From a virus (taxonomy: Duplodnaviria; Heunggongvirae; Uroviricota; Caudoviricetes): a DNA stretch of 45,038 nt. Positions 3,394 through 17,917 of this stretch are shown here, one piece after another (the first letter of the stretch is position 1; each line of letters opens with the position of its first letter). A program made the position numbers and the translations under genes. The notes under the pieces were generated by a model, which was not told the origin of the DNA, ran no database searches, and was given only the letters and a program-made list of their open reading frames with translations. The stretch is from the IMG/VR virus record IMGVR_UViG_651053023_000003, positions 1 to 45,038 of that record; one strand, 5' to 3'.

Positions 3394-3739
3394 TTTTATG
3401 TCCTTTGCATTTGTTCAGATAGCCCTGTGTTCAGCAGGGCGGTCAGGTACTTGAACACCGTGCAAAGTCGGCCCGTATCCTTAACCTTTCGGCTGTTTTT
3501 CGGTATACGCGCTACCCGACCATATCTGAGAAATGGACATAAAAAAGCCGCATGACTGACGGGTGCGGTTTCCGCTTTGCAAGGTGTGTTCAGCACCATG
3601 AAGCGGAATATAGCCCCGTTAATGCGGATTTGTCAAATCATGTAGGCCTTATCTTGCTGTAAGCCGCGCCATTCGGGCTTTTCCCCATATTTGGGGAAAA
3701 CTATCTGCGAATTATTCACCTTTGACGGCAAGTTGCAGG

Positions 3740-7030: not shown

Positions 7031-7163
7031 TTTTTGGGACTCCTGGCTGATTAAGTACGTCGATGAGTCGTTTCCATCCGTCACGTAATTTGCGGGTGAT
7101 TCGTTCAAGTAAAGATTCGGAAGGGCAGCCAGCAACAGGCCACCCTGCAATGGCATATTGCAT
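6999..7163 (-). CDS. cIII: CIII (FtsH inhibitor, stabilises CII)
   Basis: 54-aa MQYAIAGWPVAGCPSESLLERITRKLRDGWKRLIDVLNQPGVPKNGSNTYGYPD, essentially lambda CIII from memory; AAGGAG Shine-Dalgarno upstream. Confidence 0.85.
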   Translation of the reverse strand: MQYAIAGWPVAGCPSESLLERITRKLRDGWKRLIDVLNQPGVPKNGSNTYGYPD

Positions 7164-7759
7164 GGTGTGCTCCTTATTTATACATAACGAAAACGCCTCG
7201 AGTGAAGCGTTATTGGTATGCATATAAAAAGGCCCTCACACTGGAGGGCAAAGAAGATTTCCAATAATCAGAACAAGTCGGCTCCTGTTTAGTTACGAGC
7301 GACATTGCTCCGTGTATTCACTCGTTGGAATGAATACACAGTGCAGTGTTTATTCGTATGCCTGTCTTTTAACCACATCAGGCTCGGTGGTTCTCGTGTA
7401 CCCCTACAGCGAGAAATCGGATAAACTCTATTCACCCCCTACAGAGAGAATGATGGAGATTCACCGATGAGTAACTGGTGGCAGGAACTATTACGTTTCT
7501 TCCTGCGTGGTCTTACGCTACAACAGTTAATTCATATGCTTATTATTTTAATTGCCTTGATAATAATCACCCCTGCATCAATTAAAGAGTGGGTAGATAT
7601 AAGGAACCCAGAAATACTTCCAGATCACTGGATGTATTACGCAATGCTTTTGTGTATCAGTTATGTTCTGAACAGGGTGATGGAGTTTATATTTCTGGCA
7701 TCTTCAGACAGATATAAAAAATATCTCAGTAAGAGAGATGAGGCTAAAGTAATTGTGGA

Positions 7760-7768
7760 GACTGAGCG
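7760..7768. repeat. IS10 target-site duplication, left copy GACTGAGCG
   Basis: Identical 9 bp at 9098-9106 directly flanking the other IS10 end. Confidence 0.9.
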
Positions 7769-9097
7769 CTGAGAGATCCCCTCATAATTTCCCCAAAGCG
7801 TAACCATGTGTGAATAAATTTTGAGCTAGTAGGGTTGCAGCCACGAGTAAGTCTTCCCTTGTTATTGTGTAGCCAGAATGCCGCAAAACTTCCATGCCTA
7901 AGCGAACTGTTGAGAGTACGTTTCGATTTCTGACTGTGTTAGCCTGGAAGTGCTTGTCCCAACCTTGTTTCTGAGCATGAACGCCCGCAAGCCAACATGT
8001 TAGTTGAAGCATCAGGGCGATTAGCAGCATGATATCAAAACGCTCTGAGCTGCTCGTTCGGCTATGGCGTAGGCCTAGTCCGTAGGCAGGACTTTTCAAG
8101 TCTCGGAAGGTTTCTTCAATCTGCATTCGCTTCGAATAGATATTAACAAGTTGTTTGGGTGTTCGAATTTCAACAGGTAAGTTAGTTGCTAGAACCCATG
8201 GCTCCTTTGCCGACGCTGAGTAGATTTTAGGTGACGGGTGGTGACAATGAGTCCGTGTCGAGCGCTGATTTTTTCGGCCTTTAGAGCGAGATTTATACAA
8301 TAGAATTTGGCATGAGATTGGATTGCTTTTAGTCAGCCTCTTATAGCCTAAAGTCTTTGAGTGACTAGATGACATATCATGTAAGTTGCTGATAGGTTTC
8401 CAGTTTTCCGCTCCTAGGTCTGCATATTGTACTTTTCCTCTTACTCGACTTAACCAGTACCAACCCAGCTTCTCAACGGATTTATACCATGGCACTTTAA
8501 AGCCAGCATCACTGACAATGAGCGGTGTGGTGTTACTCGGTAGAATGCTCGCAAGGTCGGCTAGAAATTGGTCATGAGCTTTCTTTGAACATTGCTCTGA
8601 AAGCGGGAACGCTTTCTCATAAAGAGTAACAGAACGACCGTGTAGTGCGACTGAAGCTCGCAATACCATAAGTCGTTTTTGCTCACGAATATCAGACCAG
8701 TCAACAAGTACAATGGGCATCGTATTGCCCGAACAGATAAAGCTAGCATGCCAACGGTATACAGCGAGTCGCTCTTTGTGGAGGTGACGATTACCTAACA
8801 ATCGGTCGATTCGTTTGATGTTATGTTTTGTTCTCGCTTTGGTTGGCAGGTTACGGCCAAGTTCGGTAAGAGTGAGAGTTTTACAGTCAAGTAATGCGTG
8901 GCAAGCCAACGTTAAGCTGTTGAGTCGTTTTAAGTGTAATTCGGGGCAGAATTGGTAAAGAGAGTCGTGTAAAATATCGAGTTCGCACATCTTGTTGTCT
9001 GATTATTGATTTTTCGCGAAACCATTTGATCATATGACAAGATGTGTATCCACCTTAACTTAATGATTTTTACCAAAATCATTAGGGGATTCATCAG
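7769..9097 (-). mobile_element. IS10 insertion sequence (1329 bp)
   Basis: Inside end CTGAGAGATCCCCTCATAATTTCCCC at 7769; outside end (reverse complement CTGATGAATCCCCTAATGATTTTGGTAAAAATCATTAAG) ends at 9097; length 1329 bp; intact transposase. Confidence 0.95.
7782..8990 (-). CDS. IS10 transposase
   Basis: 402-aa ORF MCELDILHDSLYQFCPELHLKRLNSLTLACHALLDCK... matches IS10 transposase from memory. Confidence 0.95.
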   Translation of the reverse strand: MCELDILHDSLYQFCPELHLKRLNSLTLACHALLDCKTLTLTELGRNLPTKARTKHNIKRIDRLLGNRHLHKERLAVYRWHASFICSGNTMPIVLVDWSDIREQKRLMVLRASVALHGRSVTLYEKAFPLSEQCSKKAHDQFLADLASILPSNTTPLIVSDAGFKVPWYKSVEKLGWYWLSRVRGKVQYADLGAENWKPISNLHDMSSSHSKTLGYKRLTKSNPISCQILLYKSRSKGRKNQRSTRTHCHHPSPKIYSASAKEPWVLATNLPVEIRTPKQLVNIYSKRMQIEETFRDLKSPAYGLGLRHSRTSSSERFDIMLLIALMLQLTCWLAGVHAQKQGWDKHFQANTVRNRNVLSTVRLGMEVLRHSGYTITREDLLVAATLLAQNLFTHGYALGKL

Positions 9098-9106
9098 GAC
9101 TGAGCG
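9098..9106. repeat. IS10 target-site duplication, right copy GACTGAGCG
   Basis: Identical to 7760-7768. Confidence 0.9.
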
Positions 9107-9365
9107 CCTGTTCAATTCTCTGAGTATTCAGGAAAAAGAGGTTTTAGCATTTGCTGTTATGGCAAATAACAAAATCGTACTTAAGCACGGCGATCCGGTC
9201 GCTTTATCTCTTATGAGAAAAGGCCTTCTCCATCGCTCAGGTGTGACTTACAGCGCGTCAGGTAAAGAGAAATTTGTTATACCTGACGTCTGGTTCCATG
9301 AGTGTTATATGCGCTTTGCTGGTAAAGCTGATGAGCTAATTTAGTTCCTCGACGGCGGGGGATCG

Positions 9366-12997: not shown

Positions 12998-13945
12998 ATG
13001 AGCAATACAGCAAAAATCTACGATTTCAGCGCCGCACACGAGCGCAGGAGCAACAGGATGGAGAACCAGAAAACTGGTTACATTCCGTTGTACCGGAGCA
13101 TTCTGAAACAGTCATGGGCGAAAGATGTTTATCTTCGCACCCTGTGGGAAAACCTTCTCCTGAATGCCGCCAGAAAGCCACACAAAGCGAATTTCAAAGG
13201 TCATGAATGGCATCTGCAACCCGGTCAACTGGTTGTGACAGCAGCTGATTTAGGTCTTCAGTTATGCGACAGGCATGGCAAGCCGGCAAGCCGTGATCAG
13301 GTTGAGCGGATGCTTCAGGTTTTTGTGAAAGAGGGGATGATCACCATTGATGGAGAGAAGCAAAAAGGTCGTGTGATCACCATCACGAATTACCATGAAT
13401 ATGCTCAAAAAATGGACAATTCACCCGCACATGAAGCCGCACAAACAACCGCACATGACGCCGCACATGACGAAGCCAGTAATGGCGCGGCTTTCAGCGT
13501 ACATGCCGCACATGAAAGCGCACATGAAGCCGCACAAACAACCGCACATCATGAACAAGAAGGTATTAACAAGAATATAAATAATACCCCCCTACCCCCC
13601 AATGGGGGAGGCGATGGGCAGGTTAAACCTGAACGTCGCAAGGCAGAACGAATCGACTATGAATCCTTCCTGAATGCCTACAACACCGAAGTCGGTGACA
13701 GACTGCCACACGCTGTTGCGGTCAACGAGAAACGCAAACGTCGCCTGAAGAAAATCATTCCGCAACTGAAAACGCCAAACGTGGACGGTTTCAGAGCGTA
13801 TGTCAGGGCGTTTGTGCATCAGGCCAAGCCGTTTTACTTCGGAGACAACGACACGGGCTGGACGGCAGATTTTGATTACCTGCTGAGGGAAGATTCGTTA
13901 ACGGGAGTACGGGAAGGGAAGTTTGCAGACAGGGGGATTGCATGA
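12998..13945 (+). CDS. Replication initiator (lambda O / P22 gp18-like) with internal origin
   Basis: 315 aa; repeat-encoded middle segment [17 protein letters not shown]...[14 protein letters not shown]; stop overlaps helicase start (ATGA). Confidence 0.75.
13422..13555. repeat. Origin iterons (about six copies of CCGCACATGA-core repeats) inside the initiator gene
   Basis: Direct repeats of GCCGCACATGA(A/C)G at about 13425, 13449, 13461, 13506, 13519 and 13543, followed by an AT-rich stretch and C/G tracts (13560-13620). Confidence 0.7.
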
Positions 13946-15275
13946 GACAGGATATCGAAGCGAGCGTTATCGGTGGCCTGCTGATTGGTGGATTAACTCC
14001 AACCGCCAGTGACGTTCTGGCAACGCTTGAGCCGGAAGCGTTTTCAATTCCGCTCTACAGGAAAGCCTTCGAGGTTATCCGCAAGCAGGCGAGAAACAGA
14101 AACCTAATCGATGCGCTGATGGTTGCCGAGGCGTGCGGAGAGGAGCATTTCACGTCAATCCTGATGACCAGCAAAAACTGCCCGAGTGCCGCAAACCTGA
14201 AGGGATATGCCGGAATGGTCGCGGATAACTATCACCGCCGTCTGGTGCTGGAAATCATGGATGAAATGCGTGAACCAATTCAGAGCGGAACCATCGACGC
14301 ATCGAGTCAGGCGATGGATGAGCTTGTAAAGCGTCTCTCAGCCATCAGAAAGCCCCGTGACGAGGTTAAACCTGTACGGTTAGGGGAAATCATCACCGAC
14401 TACACTGACACGCTTGACAGGCGTCTGAGGAACGGAGAAGGGTCAGATACCCTGAAGACCGGAATCGAAGAACTTGACGCCATCACCGGAGGGATGAACG
14501 CAGAAGACCTGGTGATTATCGCTGCTCGTCCTGGTATGGGGAAAACCGAGCTGGCGCTGAAGATTGCCGAAGGCGTTGCAAGCCGCGTTATTCCAGGTTC
14601 TGACGTTCGGCGCGGAGTATTGATTTTCTCAATGGAAATGAGCGCATTGCAGATTGCAGAGCGAAGCATTGCCAACGCCGGGAGGATGTCGGTTAGCGTA
14701 CTGCGAAATCCTGCATCGATGGATGACGAAGGCTGGGCGCGTGTTGCTAACGGCATGAGTCAGCTTGCAGATTTGGATGTATGGGTAGTCGATGCCTCGC
14801 GGTTATCGGTCGAAGAAATACGCTCAATCGCAGAACGGCACAAACAGGAAAATCCAAACCTCTCACTCATCATGGCGGATTATCTTGGCCTGATTGAGAA
14901 GCCGAAAGCAGACCGCAACGACCTCGCAATTGCTCACATCTCCGGAAGCCTGAAGGCGATGGCGAAAGACCTGAAAACGCCTGTTATCTCCCTGAGTCAG
15001 CTTTCTCGCGATGTTGAGAAGCGACCAAACAAACGCCCGACAAACGCAGATTTGCGTGATTCAGGAAGCATTGAGCAGGACGCAGACTCAATCATCATGC
15101 TCTATCGGGAAGCGGTGTATGACGAGAACAGTAGCGCCGCGCCATTTGCTGAAATCATCGTGACGAAAAACCGTTTTGGCTCACTTGGTACGGTTTACCA
15201 GCGGTTCTGTAACGGACACTTTGAACCGCCCCGGAAATCCTGGAGACTAAACTCCCTGAGAAAGAGGTAAACAGG

Positions 15276-15602
15276 ATGACTAAAAATACTCGTTTTTCCC
15301 CCGAAGTCCGTCAGCGGGCGATTCGTATGGTTCTGGAAAGTCAGGATGAATATGACTCACAGTGGGCGGCAATTTGTTCCATTGCCCCAAAGATTGGCTG
15401 TACGCCGGAGACTCTGCGTGTCTGGGTTCGCCAGCATGAGCGGGATACCGGGGGCGGTGATGGTGGGCTCACCAGCGCTGAACGTCAGCGTCTGAAAGAG
15501 CTGGAACGTGAAAATCGTGAACTGCGCCGCAGTAACGATATCCTTCGCCAGGCTTCCGCTTATTTTGCGAAGGCGGAGTTCGACCGCCTCTGGAAAAAAT
15601 GA
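15276..15602 (+). CDS. IS3-family transposase OrfA
   Basis: 108-aa [38 protein letters not shown]... with HTH and leucine-zipper-like region. Confidence 0.85.
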
Positions 15603-16489
15603 TGCCACTGCTGGATAAGCTGCGTGAGCAGTACGGGGTCGGACCGGTATGCAGCGAACTGCATATTGCCCCGTCAACGTATTACCATTGTCAGCAACAG
15701 CGACATCATCCGGATAAACGCAGTGCCCGTGCGCAGCACGACGACTGGCTGAAGAGAGAGATACAGCGCGTATACGATGAAAATCATCAGGTGTACGGTG
15801 TGCGTAAAGTCTGGCGTCAGTTGTTACGGGAAGGAATCAGGGTGGCCAGATGTACAGTGGCACGTCTCATGGCGGTTATGGGACTTGCCGGTGTTCTCCG
15901 GGGTAAAAAGGTCCGTACGACCATCAGCCGGAAAGCCGTTGCCGCAGGCGACCGCGTAAACCGTCAGTTCGTGGCAGAACGACCTGACCAGCTGTGGGTG
16001 GCTGATTTTACTTACGTCAGCACATGGCAGGGCTTCGTCTATGTGGCGTTTATCATTGATGTGTTTGCCGGATACATCGTGGGGTGGCGGGTCTCATCGT
16101 CTATGGAAACGACATTCGTGCTGGATGCGCTGGAGCAGGCGTTGTGGGCCCGTCGTCCGTCTGGCACCATCCATCACAGCGATAAAGGCTCTCAGTATGT
16201 GTCACTGGCCTATACGGAGCGACTAAAAGAAGCCGGATTACTGGCATCAACAGGGAGTACAGGCGACTCGTATGACAACGCGATGGCTGAGAGCATCAAT
16301 GGTCTTTACAAAGCGGAGGTAATACACCGTAAGAGCTGGAAAAACCGTGCAGAAGTGGAACTGGCCACACTAACGTGGGTGGACTGGTATAACAATCGAC
16401 GATTGCTGGGAAGGCTGGGCCATACTCCTCCGGCAGAAGCAGAAAAAGCTTATTATGCTTCCATCGGAAACAATGATCTGGCAGCCTGA
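15599..16489 (+). CDS. IS3-family transposase OrfB (DDE catalytic domain; expressed as OrfAB by -1 frameshift)
   Basis: 296-aa ORF with integrase-core motifs; overlaps the orfA end at the A-rich run around 15590-15603. Confidence 0.85.
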
Positions 16490-16657
16490 GTTCACAGATA
16501 AAACACTCTCCAGGAAACCCGGGGCGGTTCACTTTGTTGCATGTGACCAGGATGAAGCCAGACAGATTTGCACAGCATCAAATGCGCCTGCTGCGCGTGG
16601 CAGACGATATGCACAAGGGGCGGACGTATGACCATCTACATCACTGAGCTAATAACA

Positions 16658-16688
16658 GGGGCTATTTACACAGTAGCCCTTTTTTATT
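16658..16688 (+). terminator. Rho-independent terminator downstream of the helicase gene
   Basis: Stem GGGCTA/TAGCCC with 9-nt loop followed by TTTTTTATT. Confidence 0.6.
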
Positions 16689-16712
16689 GGATTAAGAACG
16701 AGGGGGATCCTG

Positions 16713-16925: not shown

Positions 16926-17322
16926 AATTCGATCCCCAGCACATCAGCAAAACGCTATTCACGCGGTACAGAAAATTCTTCCAGACCCAACCAAACCAAT
17001 CGTAGTAACCATTCAGGAACGCAACCGCAGCATTCGGCAAAATGCACGCCTTCACGCGATGCTATCTGAAATAAGTAAGAAGGCTACATATCATGGGAAA
17101 GCAAGAAATATTGAGTTTTGGAAGGGGTTATTCGTTTCTGGTTGGCAGATTGCAACCAACCAGCACCCTGAGATTATATCAGGGTTAGAAGGTGAGCTAA
17201 TAAACATCAGAGAGAGTACGGCGACTCTATCTGTAAAAAAAATATCCGAAATAATGGACTACATAGAAGCATATTGTGCCATGAACTCAATTCATCTTAG
17301 CGAATGGAGGAATTATGATTGA
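16906..17322 (+). CDS. ninB: NinB (Orf-family recombination mediator), C-terminus altered by the downstream insertion
   Basis: 138 aa; N-terminus MKKLTFEIRSPAHQQNAIHAVQKILPDPTKPIVVTIQERNRS matches lambda NinB from memory. Confidence 0.8.
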   Translation: MKKLTFEIRSPAHQQNAIHAVQKILPDPTKPIVVTIQERNRSIRQNARLHAMLSEISKKATYHGKARNIEFWKGLFVSGWQIATNQHPEIISGLEGELINIRESTATLSVKKISEIMDYIEAYCAMNSIHLSEWRNYD

Positions 17323-17917
17323 GGTTTGGGTAGATATCGAAGGAATTCCATTTTATCAGGTTAGCAATAAAGGAAATTTCAGGTCTATTACGAGGGAAAT
17401 TACAGTAACATCAACCAGACAGAGGCCATATAAGAAAATAATTAATGGCACTAGCGTAAAACCATTCAAGTGCAAGTCGACAGGATATCTTCAAATAAAG
17501 GTATACGGTAAGAAATACAGCGCCCACAGGATAGTTGCGAAAGCATTCTGTACAGGGTTCTGTGATGGCTTGGTAGTTAATCACAAAAATGGGCAAAGAG
17601 ATGACAATAGGGCTGAAAACCTTGAGTGGGTATCACATTCTGAAAACTCAAAGCACGGATATAAACAAAATGGAAGAATACCTATATCGCTAGGTAAATT
17701 TAGTGGTGATCATCCTGCCAGTAAAGCTGTTATTTCTACTGACATGAAAACTGGGGAGGAGGTTTATTATGAAGCAGCTATGGATGCTGTCAGAGAAGGA
17801 TTTGATAGTTCGTCAATTAGTCGTTGCTGTAATGGCGAAAGCTCATATCACAAAGGAAGATTCTGGCGATTTGCAAATGAAACAATGAAAGCGCGATGGG
17901 GAGATCGGGCCGCATGA
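17315..17917 (+). CDS. HNH homing endonuclease (NUMOD4 + HNH_3-type)
   Basis: 200 aa; NUMOD4-like WVDIEGIPFYQVSNKGNFRS and HNH motif HRIVAKAF...NHKNGQRDDNRAENLEW; own GAGGAA Shine-Dalgarno; C-terminal tail KARWGDRAA. Confidence 0.8.
   Translation: MIEVWVDIEGIPFYQVSNKGNFRSITREITVTSTRQRPYKKIINGTSVKPFKCKSTGYLQIKVYGKKYSAHRIVAKAFCTGFCDGLVVNHKNGQRDDNRAENLEWVSHSENSKHGYKQNGRIPISLGKFSGDHPASKAVISTDMKTGEEVYYEAAMDAVREGFDSSSISRCCNGESSYHKGRFWRFANETMKARWGDRAA

Follow-up and report, generated by a model that had tools for sequence, protein, structure and literature searches.

A recent IS629/IS1203 insertion splits the DnaB-type helicase gene of a P22-like prophage

Results

IS629 cuts the last 31 codons off the prophage helicase gene

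The window, i.e. the whole 45,038-nucleotide stretch of IMG/VR record IMGVR_UViG_651053023_000003 analysed here, holds a P22-like (Lederbergvirus-type) prophage whose replicative helicase gene is split by a complete copy of IS629/IS1203, an insertion that we regard with near certainty as both real and recent. The helicase gene is a disrupted member of its family, a pseudogene, because its 442-aa product lacks residues 428-458, which 109 full-length relatives keep. The parts of the split gene are as follows:

13942-16631, + strand: P22 gp12-type DnaB helicase gene including the IS
13942-15221, + strand: 5' part of the helicase gene (nt 1-1280 of 1377), encoding the DnaB N-terminal domain and almost the whole RecA-like domain
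13942-15270, + strand: current helicase ORF of 442 aa (427 native and 15 IS-encoded residues)
16535-16631, + strand: orphan 3' remnant of the helicase gene, from the final base of codon 427 to the stop after codon 458

The initial annotation had placed the insertion after codon 426, with about 31 codons cut off and continuing in frame beyond the IS, which agrees with our analysis apart from a small refinement. Position 15219 closes codon 426 (CAC, His), and the IS supplies with its first T the third base of codon 427 (TTT, Phe), so that 427 native residues are retained and exactly 31 (428-458) are lost. The truncated frame ends at a TAA (15268-15270), 5 nt upstream of the IS orfA start codon, and its 15 IS-encoded terminal residues are proline-rich and basic. 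In the orphan 3' end lie the codons for the last beta-strand and a short helix, followed by those for a variable linker and a conserved terminal RYxxGADV. Joining 13942-15221 to 16535-16631 by script yielded an ORF of 1377 nt and 458 codons with TGA at 16629-16631; the IS-free junction, after removal of the IS and one CTT, reads ...GGACACTTTGTTGCA....

The call of a DnaB-type helicase gene was borne out by matches to Pfam PF00772 (DnaB, 4e-13) and PF03796 (DnaB_C, 9e-78), by a Walker A motif (GMGKT, residues 198-202) and by E. coli DnaB structures, which match the helicase at 1e-66. The DnaB_C match runs from residue 171 to 423 and from position 2 to 247 of the 255-position profile, of which about eight positions are lost. 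Alignment of the rebuilt helicase to P22 gp12, a check that the initial annotation had proposed, was gapless, with 413 of 458 residues identical (90%), including 35 of the last 38, and identified the gene as the P22 gp12 orthologue.

The element is an intact IS629/IS1203 copy

15222-16531, + strand: IS629/IS1203, 1310 bp, co-directional with helicase gene and early-right operon
15222-15234, + strand: left terminal inverted repeat TGAACCGCCCCGG (direct reading and script)
16519-16531, - strand: right terminal inverted repeat, complement CCGGGGCGGTTCA (direct reading and script)
15219-15221, no strand: left copy of the CTT target-site duplication (direct reading and script)
16532-16534, no strand: right copy of the CTT target-site duplication (direct reading and script)
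15276-15602, + strand: IS629 orfA, 108 aa, helix-turn-helix (Pfam HTH_Tnp_1, 2e-12)
15599-16489, + strand: IS629 orfB, 296 aa, DDE/rve catalytic domain, frame -1 with respect to orfA (Pfam rve, 9e-28; HTH_21; rve_3)
15557-15673, + strand: ALIL pseudoknot, a frameshift-stimulating RNA (Rfam RF01497, 121.5 bits, full-length 1-117)

The 1310-bp IS3-family element with terminal repeats and flanking CTT copies described from the sequence was exact to the base. Its inverted repeats match at 13 of 13 positions and then at 22 of the first 25, and a search of both strands of the window with TGAACCGCCCCGG returned two matches, the IS ends themselves, where 0.04 were expected by chance. In keeping with the rule for the IS3 family, the repeats are imperfect, the element starts with 5'-TG and finishes with CA-3', and its length is about 1310 bp; the CTT duplication likewise falls within the 3-4 bp typical of IS629, the duplications at other copies being TGC, TAG and CGAT. 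All coding and RNA features are intact, including an A6 run (15594-15599) that lies at the orfA/orfB overlap inside the span of the ALIL pseudoknot.

The designation 'IS629-like' could be made firm, as all 1310 bp are identical (100%) to copies that carry the annotation IS3-like element IS1203 in E. coli UMNK88 and AUSMDU00014361, and the copy is 99.9% identical to those in O157:H7. Copies identical to that in the window are labelled 'programmed frameshift' in RefSeq. With the IS629/IS1203 reference it shares length, terminal repeats, 3-bp duplication, the orfA/orfB -1 frameshift and the pseudoknot; its structure is no different from what is known, and the insertion site alone is new. IS629/IS1203 is the dominant insertion sequence in E. 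coli O157:H7 and related STEC. It was found in 4252 of 5426 complete E. coli genomes, at a median of 4 and a maximum of 53 places per genome.

The prophage is otherwise complete and carries a second insertion in sieB

12998-13945, + strand: O-like / P22 gp18-type replication initiator, 315 aa, intact (Pfam Phage_rep_O, 9e-14)
16657-16691, + strand: intrinsic terminator-like stem-loop with T-run, just 3' of the helicase stop
7467-9344, + strand: sieB (superinfection exclusion B), split by IS10 into 7467-7768 and 9107-9344
7769-9097, - strand: IS10, 1329 bp, DDE_Tnp_1 transposase, 9-bp duplication

The prophage sits at the lambda attachment site, adjoining ybhC, and the ybhC flank is 100% E. coli. 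Apart from the two split genes it looks complete, with int, repressor, the O-like gene, NinB, Q, lysis, terminase, portal, coat, injection-protein and tailspike genes. As in P22, the order is initiator, helicase, terminator and ninB, the helicase gene measures 1377 nt, and the stem-loop at 16657-16691 matches the position of the P22 L2 terminator (in ninA). In contrast to the uninterrupted P22 gene 12, the gene in the window is IS-split, and the partner of its helicase is a CUS-3-type O-like protein of 315 aa, whereas that in P22 is gp18. The initiator gene overlaps the helicase start (ATGA), and its 948 nt equal the length of the CUS-3 O gene.

The second insertion, in sieB, is a separate event and functionally minor. 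Its length of 1329 bp, 9-bp duplication (GACTGAGCG, 7760-7768 and 9098-9106), DDE transposase and RNA-OUT antisense RNA (8983-9052, 98.8 bits) are all those of IS10 (IS4 family), and the rebuilt sieB ORF of 179 aa matches Pfam SieB (3e-20). The same IS10-truncated sieB was present on one short contig of an independent short-read assembly (Logan SRR10990336). Since sieB is dispensable for lytic growth, IS10 adds nothing to any replication defect. The claim of two recent, independent IS insertions in one prophage was thereby upheld: both look recent, because their duplications are perfect, their transposase genes are intact and the split genes show no secondary damage.

The lost C-terminus is conserved among helicase relatives

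The helicase gene matched 708 records, and in 689 the match spanned 80% or more of its length; hundreds of E. coli chromosomes, like phages CUS-3 and HF4s, carry an intact 1377-nt allele of about 98% identity. Conservation of the C-terminus was assessed in 109 full-length relatives of 454-460 aa and 76-99% identity. F427, C430, E434, R451 and V458 are invariant in this set, conservation is 95% or higher at D431, Q432, R436, G455 and A456 and about 85-90% at D457, and the terminal R-Y-x-x-G-A-D-V is near-invariant. Residues 437-450 form a variable, indel-rich linker between the two conserved blocks. These alignments show clear purifying selection on the lost C-terminus, whose conservation resembles that expected of a protein-docking motif. 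The initial annotation had raised the idea that the truncated helicase is the native form in related phages; no helicase ending near residue 426 was present among the 109 full-length relatives or the 120 cluster representatives, and the homologue length distribution together with the C-terminal conservation rules this idea out.

In an alignment to solved E. coli DnaB, the break corresponds to residue 456/457 of 471, 14 residues before the aligned end, and the 25-residue helicase tail has no counterpart in E. coli DnaB, which places this tail outside the universal helicase machinery. In an AF2 model, residues 416-423 and 426-429 are strands and 432-441 a helix, with a disordered tail beyond. 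Mean pLDDT was 65.9, falling below 50 around 424-428 and 443-458, and this low confidence makes the structural reading of the lost segment weak. Our literature search found nothing specific on the function of the P22 gene 12 C-terminus. In T7 gp4, an acidic C-terminal tail contacts the polymerase; residues 437-458 can be likened to it in that a flexible linker leads to a short motif conserved at the very end, a likeness of arrangement that implies no sequence similarity.

Other IS629/IS1203 insertions near the helicase 3' end

The IS629-helicase junction was absent from the 5426 complete E. coli genomes and from species-representative genomes, and neither the 442-aa helicase product nor the O-like protein had an identical record in the collections searched. 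The complete E. coli genomes hold seven other IS629/IS1203 events in the helicase gene or its immediate 3' flank, which are independent since their positions, duplications, orientations and prophage backbones differ. The carriers are Stx2a-type prophages (O157:H7 ECP19-598, G5295, BB24-1; ERL05-1306; B20123 group; FRIK2455 group; NZRM4165; strain 7636 group), with helicase genes about 97-98% identical to that in the window. The sites lie mostly in the 3' part of the gene (after nt 1156, at nt 1157-1159 with TGC, at nt 1191-1193 with TAG, and at the last codon) or 3' of its stop (52 bp beyond, and 80 bp beyond with CGAT). While the intragenic events at nt 1156-1193 remove 61-74 residues including RecA-core strands, that in the window removes 31. 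Three of the seven (last codon or just past the stop) are probably harmless; in FRIK2455, FRIK2533 and FRIK2069, which carry IS1203 at the last codon, the RefSeq annotation still gives an intact gene.

Six of the seven events fall within 302 bp (surveyed nt ~450-1480; scan-statistic P ~0.05), and three of the four intragenic ones within 38 bp (post hoc P ~0.02). Clustering at the 3' end of the helicase gene is thus suggestive, and it is the sole mildly unusual point of the insertion. Three apparent leads were discarded during this survey. An impression that all insertions share the orientation of the helicase gene stemmed from a search that joined pieces on one strand, and the mirror query gave two sites in opposite orientation. 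P0008, a candidate for a second IS event three codons upstream, proved to be a contig joining the helicase to a late gene with no IS, i.e. a deletion or chimeric assembly. Finally, a ~1-kb interruption of the helicase gene in O157 Stx2a phages, a candidate for a further IS, turned out to be an intein inserted in frame within the Walker A motif.

Discussion

The sequence shows that IS629 transposed recently into nt 1280 of the 1377-nt helicase gene, generating the CTT duplication and a 442-aa protein. This protein retains the N-terminal domain and all ATPase motifs, has lost the final RecA-like beta-strand, the helix and the conserved tail, and has gained 15 foreign residues. Classical genetics established the P22 gene 12 helicase as essential for phage DNA replication. 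Because of this requirement and the docking-motif-like conservation of the lost tail, the truncated helicase is predicted to be inactive or badly impaired, a prediction that we consider likely to hold. Upon induction the prophage would excise yet replicate poorly, as its helicase is most likely impaired, and a replication-defective prophage is a plausible outcome as far as the sequence can tell. Such a defect would be potentially reversible, as the gene is regained base for base once the IS and one CTT are removed, and in strains carrying IEE this protein promotes excision of IS629, a process that can reactivate genes (PMC9943667, PMC9397093). The initial annotation had not taken such excision into account.

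An assembly artefact, in which a multicopy IS was misplaced into the helicase gene, is hardly credible. The high copy number of IS629 in many strains and the failure to find the junction in any other searched record would fit such an error, yet a perfect 3-bp duplication at both junctions together with base-exact restoration of the 458-codon frame is the signature of transposition and unlike a collapsed repeat. Moreover, IS10 in the same window is equally clean, and its truncation of sieB recurs in the independent Logan assembly. Unlikely, though with more in its favour, is a truncated helicase that still functions, perhaps as a hypomorph, leaving the prophage replication-competent and the insertion nearly neutral. 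The truncated product still has its Walker A/B motifs, arginine-finger region and N-terminal domain, the break falls just 14 residues short of the end of the E. coli DnaB-aligned part, the small loss from the DnaB_C profile could allow residual activity, and three of seven other events are probably harmless themselves. Against this, the lost segment holds invariant residues and a terminal motif conserved in relatives down to 76% identity, none of 120 cluster representatives is a natural allele ending near residue 426, and the last beta-strand of a hairpin is exchanged for a proline-rich, basic foreign peptide.

It is also improbable that the insertion acts as a reversible switch, whereby induction would boost expression of the co-oriented transposase genes and, with IEE, some cells would regain an intact helicase through precise excision. 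The sequence allows an exact repair, and the transposase genes, which run in the same direction as the early-right operon, begin 5 nt past the truncated helicase stop. However, iee is not encoded in the window, insertions in the helicase gene occur in both orientations, so that co-orientation is no rule, and in a lacZ case an IS600 copy was rarely excised, at a frequency on which lac operon induction had no detectable effect, although that copy lay opposite to the operon. Similarly low is the probability we assign to a broader scheme in which the helicase 3' end and terminator region would be a preferred or preferentially retained IS629 target and lambdoid and P22-like prophages would be repeatedly and reversibly 'grounded', with replication off and IEE-promoted excision restoring the gene, possibly boosted by early-right read-through into the co-oriented transposase genes.

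The insertion in the window is an ordinary and already well-documented kind of prophage damage. Diversity within Stx2a phage types was attributed mainly to IS629, which splits the prophage genes roi, lysozyme and methyltransferase there (Yin et al. 2015, PMC4587872). In contrast to those Stx phages, the window holds a P22-like prophage and no stx. The helicase gene is not mentioned in that study (no occurrence of 'helicase'), nor in PMC9943667 or PMC9397093.

What is known of IS629, prophage decay and DnaB helicases is left unchanged by this case, which is of modest practical use. The conserved RYxxGADV ending of gp12-type helicases offers a small lead toward a docking partner, and the two IS junctions, unseen in complete E. 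coli genomes, provide a precise strain marker. An IS-split gene with a clean duplication represents a very young, potentially reversible pseudogene, and the prophage is probably a poor replicator, which is relevant when its phage production or transduction capacity is judged.

An intact IS629/IS1203 element splits the helicase gene of a P22-like prophage

Taken as a whole, the window represents a P22-like prophage, with a lambda-type integrase gene adjoining ybhC (flank 100% identical to E. coli) and a full-looking gene set for regulation, lysis, head, injection and tailspike. The interrupted ORF starts at 13942, encodes a DnaB N-terminal domain and a DnaB_C RecA-like domain, and aligned to solved E. 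coli DnaB structures at 1e-66. In the gene order known from P22, an initiator gene comes before it and a terminator-like hairpin and ninB come after it.

Features of the insertion and its surroundings
12998-13945: O-like initiator gene, intact, directly upstream of the helicase gene
15219-15221 and 16532-16534: CTT target duplication, before and after the element
15222-15234: left terminal repeat TGAACCGCCCCGG, with its reverse complement at 16519-16531
15276-15602: orfA (HTH)
15557-15673: ALIL frameshift pseudoknot, complete (121.5 bits)
15599-16489: orfB (rve/DDE), -1 frame
16576-16631: C-terminal linker and motif, helicase residues about 441-458
16657-16691: terminator-like hairpin downstream of the helicase gene

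The terminal repeats, the only two matches to TGAACCGCCCCGG and its reverse complement in the 45-kb window (0.04 expected by chance), enclose exactly 1310 bp, and every defining IS3-family feature is present and undamaged. Over this full length the element is 100% identical to copies annotated in RefSeq as 'IS3-like element IS1203 family' in E. coli UMNK88 and AUSMDU00014361, and 99.9% identical to the O157:H7 copies, which are named IS629 in the literature; of the 5426 complete E. coli genomes, 4252 contain a match.

The ORF enters the element after codon 426 (His), which ends at 15219. Joining 13942-15221 to 16535-16631 gave a 1377-nt ORF of 458 codons ending at 16631, the same length as P22 gene 12, and the rebuilt protein aligned to P22 gp12 with zero gaps (413 of 458 residues identical; 35 of 38 at the C-terminal end). 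Intact 1377-nt alleles of about 98% identity are carried by phages CUS-3 and HF4s and by hundreds of E. coli chromosomes. The initial annotation, which had described a 1310-bp IS3-family element with terminal repeats and a CTT duplication, agreed with the sequence in every detail. Its placement after codon 426, with about 31 codons removed and continuing in frame beyond the element, was likewise borne out, with one refinement: the element's first T re-forms codon 427 (Phe), so that the current product comprises 427 native and 15 element-encoded residues and lacks exactly 31. A 58-aa ORF (16455-16631, +) opens at an ATG within the right-hand part of the IS, crosses the inverted repeat and continues in frame into the severed 3' portion of the helicase gene; its product, should there be one, would supply the lost strand, helix and tail.

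The insertion appears recent, since the two copies of the duplication match perfectly, active-looking elements elsewhere are identical to this IS, and neither helicase half carries other damage. The second recent insertion proposed for this prophage also held up and is equally clean:

7769-9097: IS10, with a 9-bp duplication GACTGAGCG, DDE transposase and RNA-OUT

Its rebuilt target is sieB (Pfam, 3e-20), a superinfection-exclusion gene dispensable for lytic growth, and IS10 therefore contributes nothing to any replication defect. Exactly the same IS10-truncated sieB fragment was found in an independent short-read assembly (Logan SRR10990336 contig 389, 2354-2659), revealing a sibling prophage in public read data; this contig spans only 2.7 kb, and the helicase region lies outside it.

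Further elements were observed in the prophage. Directly upstream of the split sieB lies a lambda cIII thermoregulator RNA element (7118-7176, -; 88.5 bits), which makes the cIII/kil region lambda-like although the virion genes are P22-like. An sRNA-Xcc1 Rfam match (3433-3521, -; 68.3 bits, above the gathering score) is located among small ORFs of the early-left accessory region. A free-standing HNH/NUMOD4 homing-endonuclease-like gene (17315-17917, +; 200 aa) lies between ninB and a Dam methyltransferase gene; some O157 prophages likewise have annotated HNH endonuclease genes in their nin region, beyond the helicase gene.

Loss of a conserved C-terminus probably impairs the helicase

Alignment to the solved structures put the break at position 456/457 of E. 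coli DnaB (471 residues), which leaves every ATPase and DNA-binding motif in place. The missing segment is not arbitrary sequence, however: none of 109 full-length relatives (454-460 aa, 76-99% identical) ended near residue 426. Among these, F427, C430, E434, R451 and V458 are invariant, conservation reaches at least 95% for D431, Q432, R436, G455 and A456 and about 85-90% for D457, and a variable, indel-rich linker (437-450) lies between the two conserved blocks. Such conservation is typical of a final structural element with a docking motif tethered behind it. The nearly invariant terminus R-Y-x-x-G-A-D-V-COOH looks like a putative docking peptide, for which E. coli DnaB lacks a counterpart. 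An AlphaFold2 model of a 99% identical homologue (P0003) showed strands at 416-423 and 426-429 and a helix at 432-441, with a disordered tail, but at only moderate confidence (mean pLDDT 65.9, below 50 around the break).

Because classical genetics has established that P22 cannot replicate its DNA without gene 12, we consider it fairly likely that function of the truncated helicase would be lost or severely impaired, and the proposed replication-defective prophage is a reasonable reading. The insertion may be polar on the nin and Q genes that follow; during antiterminated transcription any such effect is probably limited, given the single weak terminator-like site within the IS. Deletion of the IS with one CTT copy in silico restored the helicase gene exactly. 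Excision of IS3-family elements, IS629 among them, depends on transposase and is promoted by the IEE protein of STEC strains, and IEE reactivated an IS600-inserted lacZ at low frequency (PMC9943667; PMC9397093). Any helicase defect may thus be reversible in a host that carries iee.

IS629/IS1203 insertions recur at the helicase gene

Prophage genes split by IS629 are well documented, and such insertions are described as the chief cause of within-type diversity in Stx2a phages (PMC4587872). In complete E. coli genomes, seven further independent IS629/IS1203 events were located within or next to the same helicase gene.

Other IS629/IS1203 events at the helicase gene
about nt 495 (estimated from match coverage): opposite orientation, second prophage; BB24-1
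after nt 1156: 96% IS variant with flank deletion; B20123 group
nt 1157-1159: duplication TGC; three O157:H7 strains
nt 1191-1193: duplication TAG; ERL05-1306
last codon: opposite orientation; FRIK2455 group
52 bp after stop: opposite orientation; six strains
80 bp after stop: duplication CGAT; NZRM4165

In O157:H7 BB24-1 (NZ_CP038402.1), two prophages carry IS1203-hit helicase genes (about 1801369-1801779 and 2028349-2029425), at about nt 495 in opposite and nt 1157-1159 in the same orientation. The impression that the element always lies in the helicase orientation was rejected as an artefact of search design, since a mirror query found opposite copies. The survey of nt ~450-1480 of the gene region, in both orientations and anchored further upstream, placed six of the seven events close together at the 3' end, in a stretch of 302 bp (scan-statistic P about 0.05), and three of the four intragenic events in a segment of 38 bp (P about 0.02, post hoc), many of the surveyed genomes being related O157 strains; the clustering is no more than suggestive. 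Harmlessness probably explains why the three events at or beyond the stop were retained.

Other variants of this helicase were also observed. In O157 Stx2a phages, a 1014-bp in-frame insert separates K201 from T202 in Walker A (GMGK|T; locus L004 2104-3117 of E. coli O157:H7 TT12A, protein P0004), and recurs in many such phages, LC487997 and LC616031-58 among them. Its first residue is Ala, its last two are HN, with Thr following, and it contains a LAGLIDADG domain, features that identify it as an intein. The insert-bearing helicase is a 797-aa protein in a cluster of 1046 member sequences, and RefSeq splits it into two CDS in TT12A. Several helicase-fusion proteins, each the single member of its database entry (P0017, P0022, P0024, P0027 and P0028 from Logan and NCBI assemblies, and P0008 at L007 1586-3265), join the first ~388-423 residues in frame to an unrelated phage protein (NinG, scaffold, terminase/coat or a late-gene product). 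Most break at '...DSIIMLY(RE)(AV)', only a few bases away from the IS629 sites at nt 1156/1159; the fusions may be real deletions or assembly chimeras.

The structural reading, in which the IS splits the helicase gene, is right. Element, gene and phenomenon are all already known; only the IS-helicase junction is new, being absent from the 5426 complete E. coli genomes and the species-representative genomes. The one thread possibly above the ordinary combines a possible clustering of insertions at the 3' end of the helicase gene with induction-coupled excision, an idea we regard as highly improbable.
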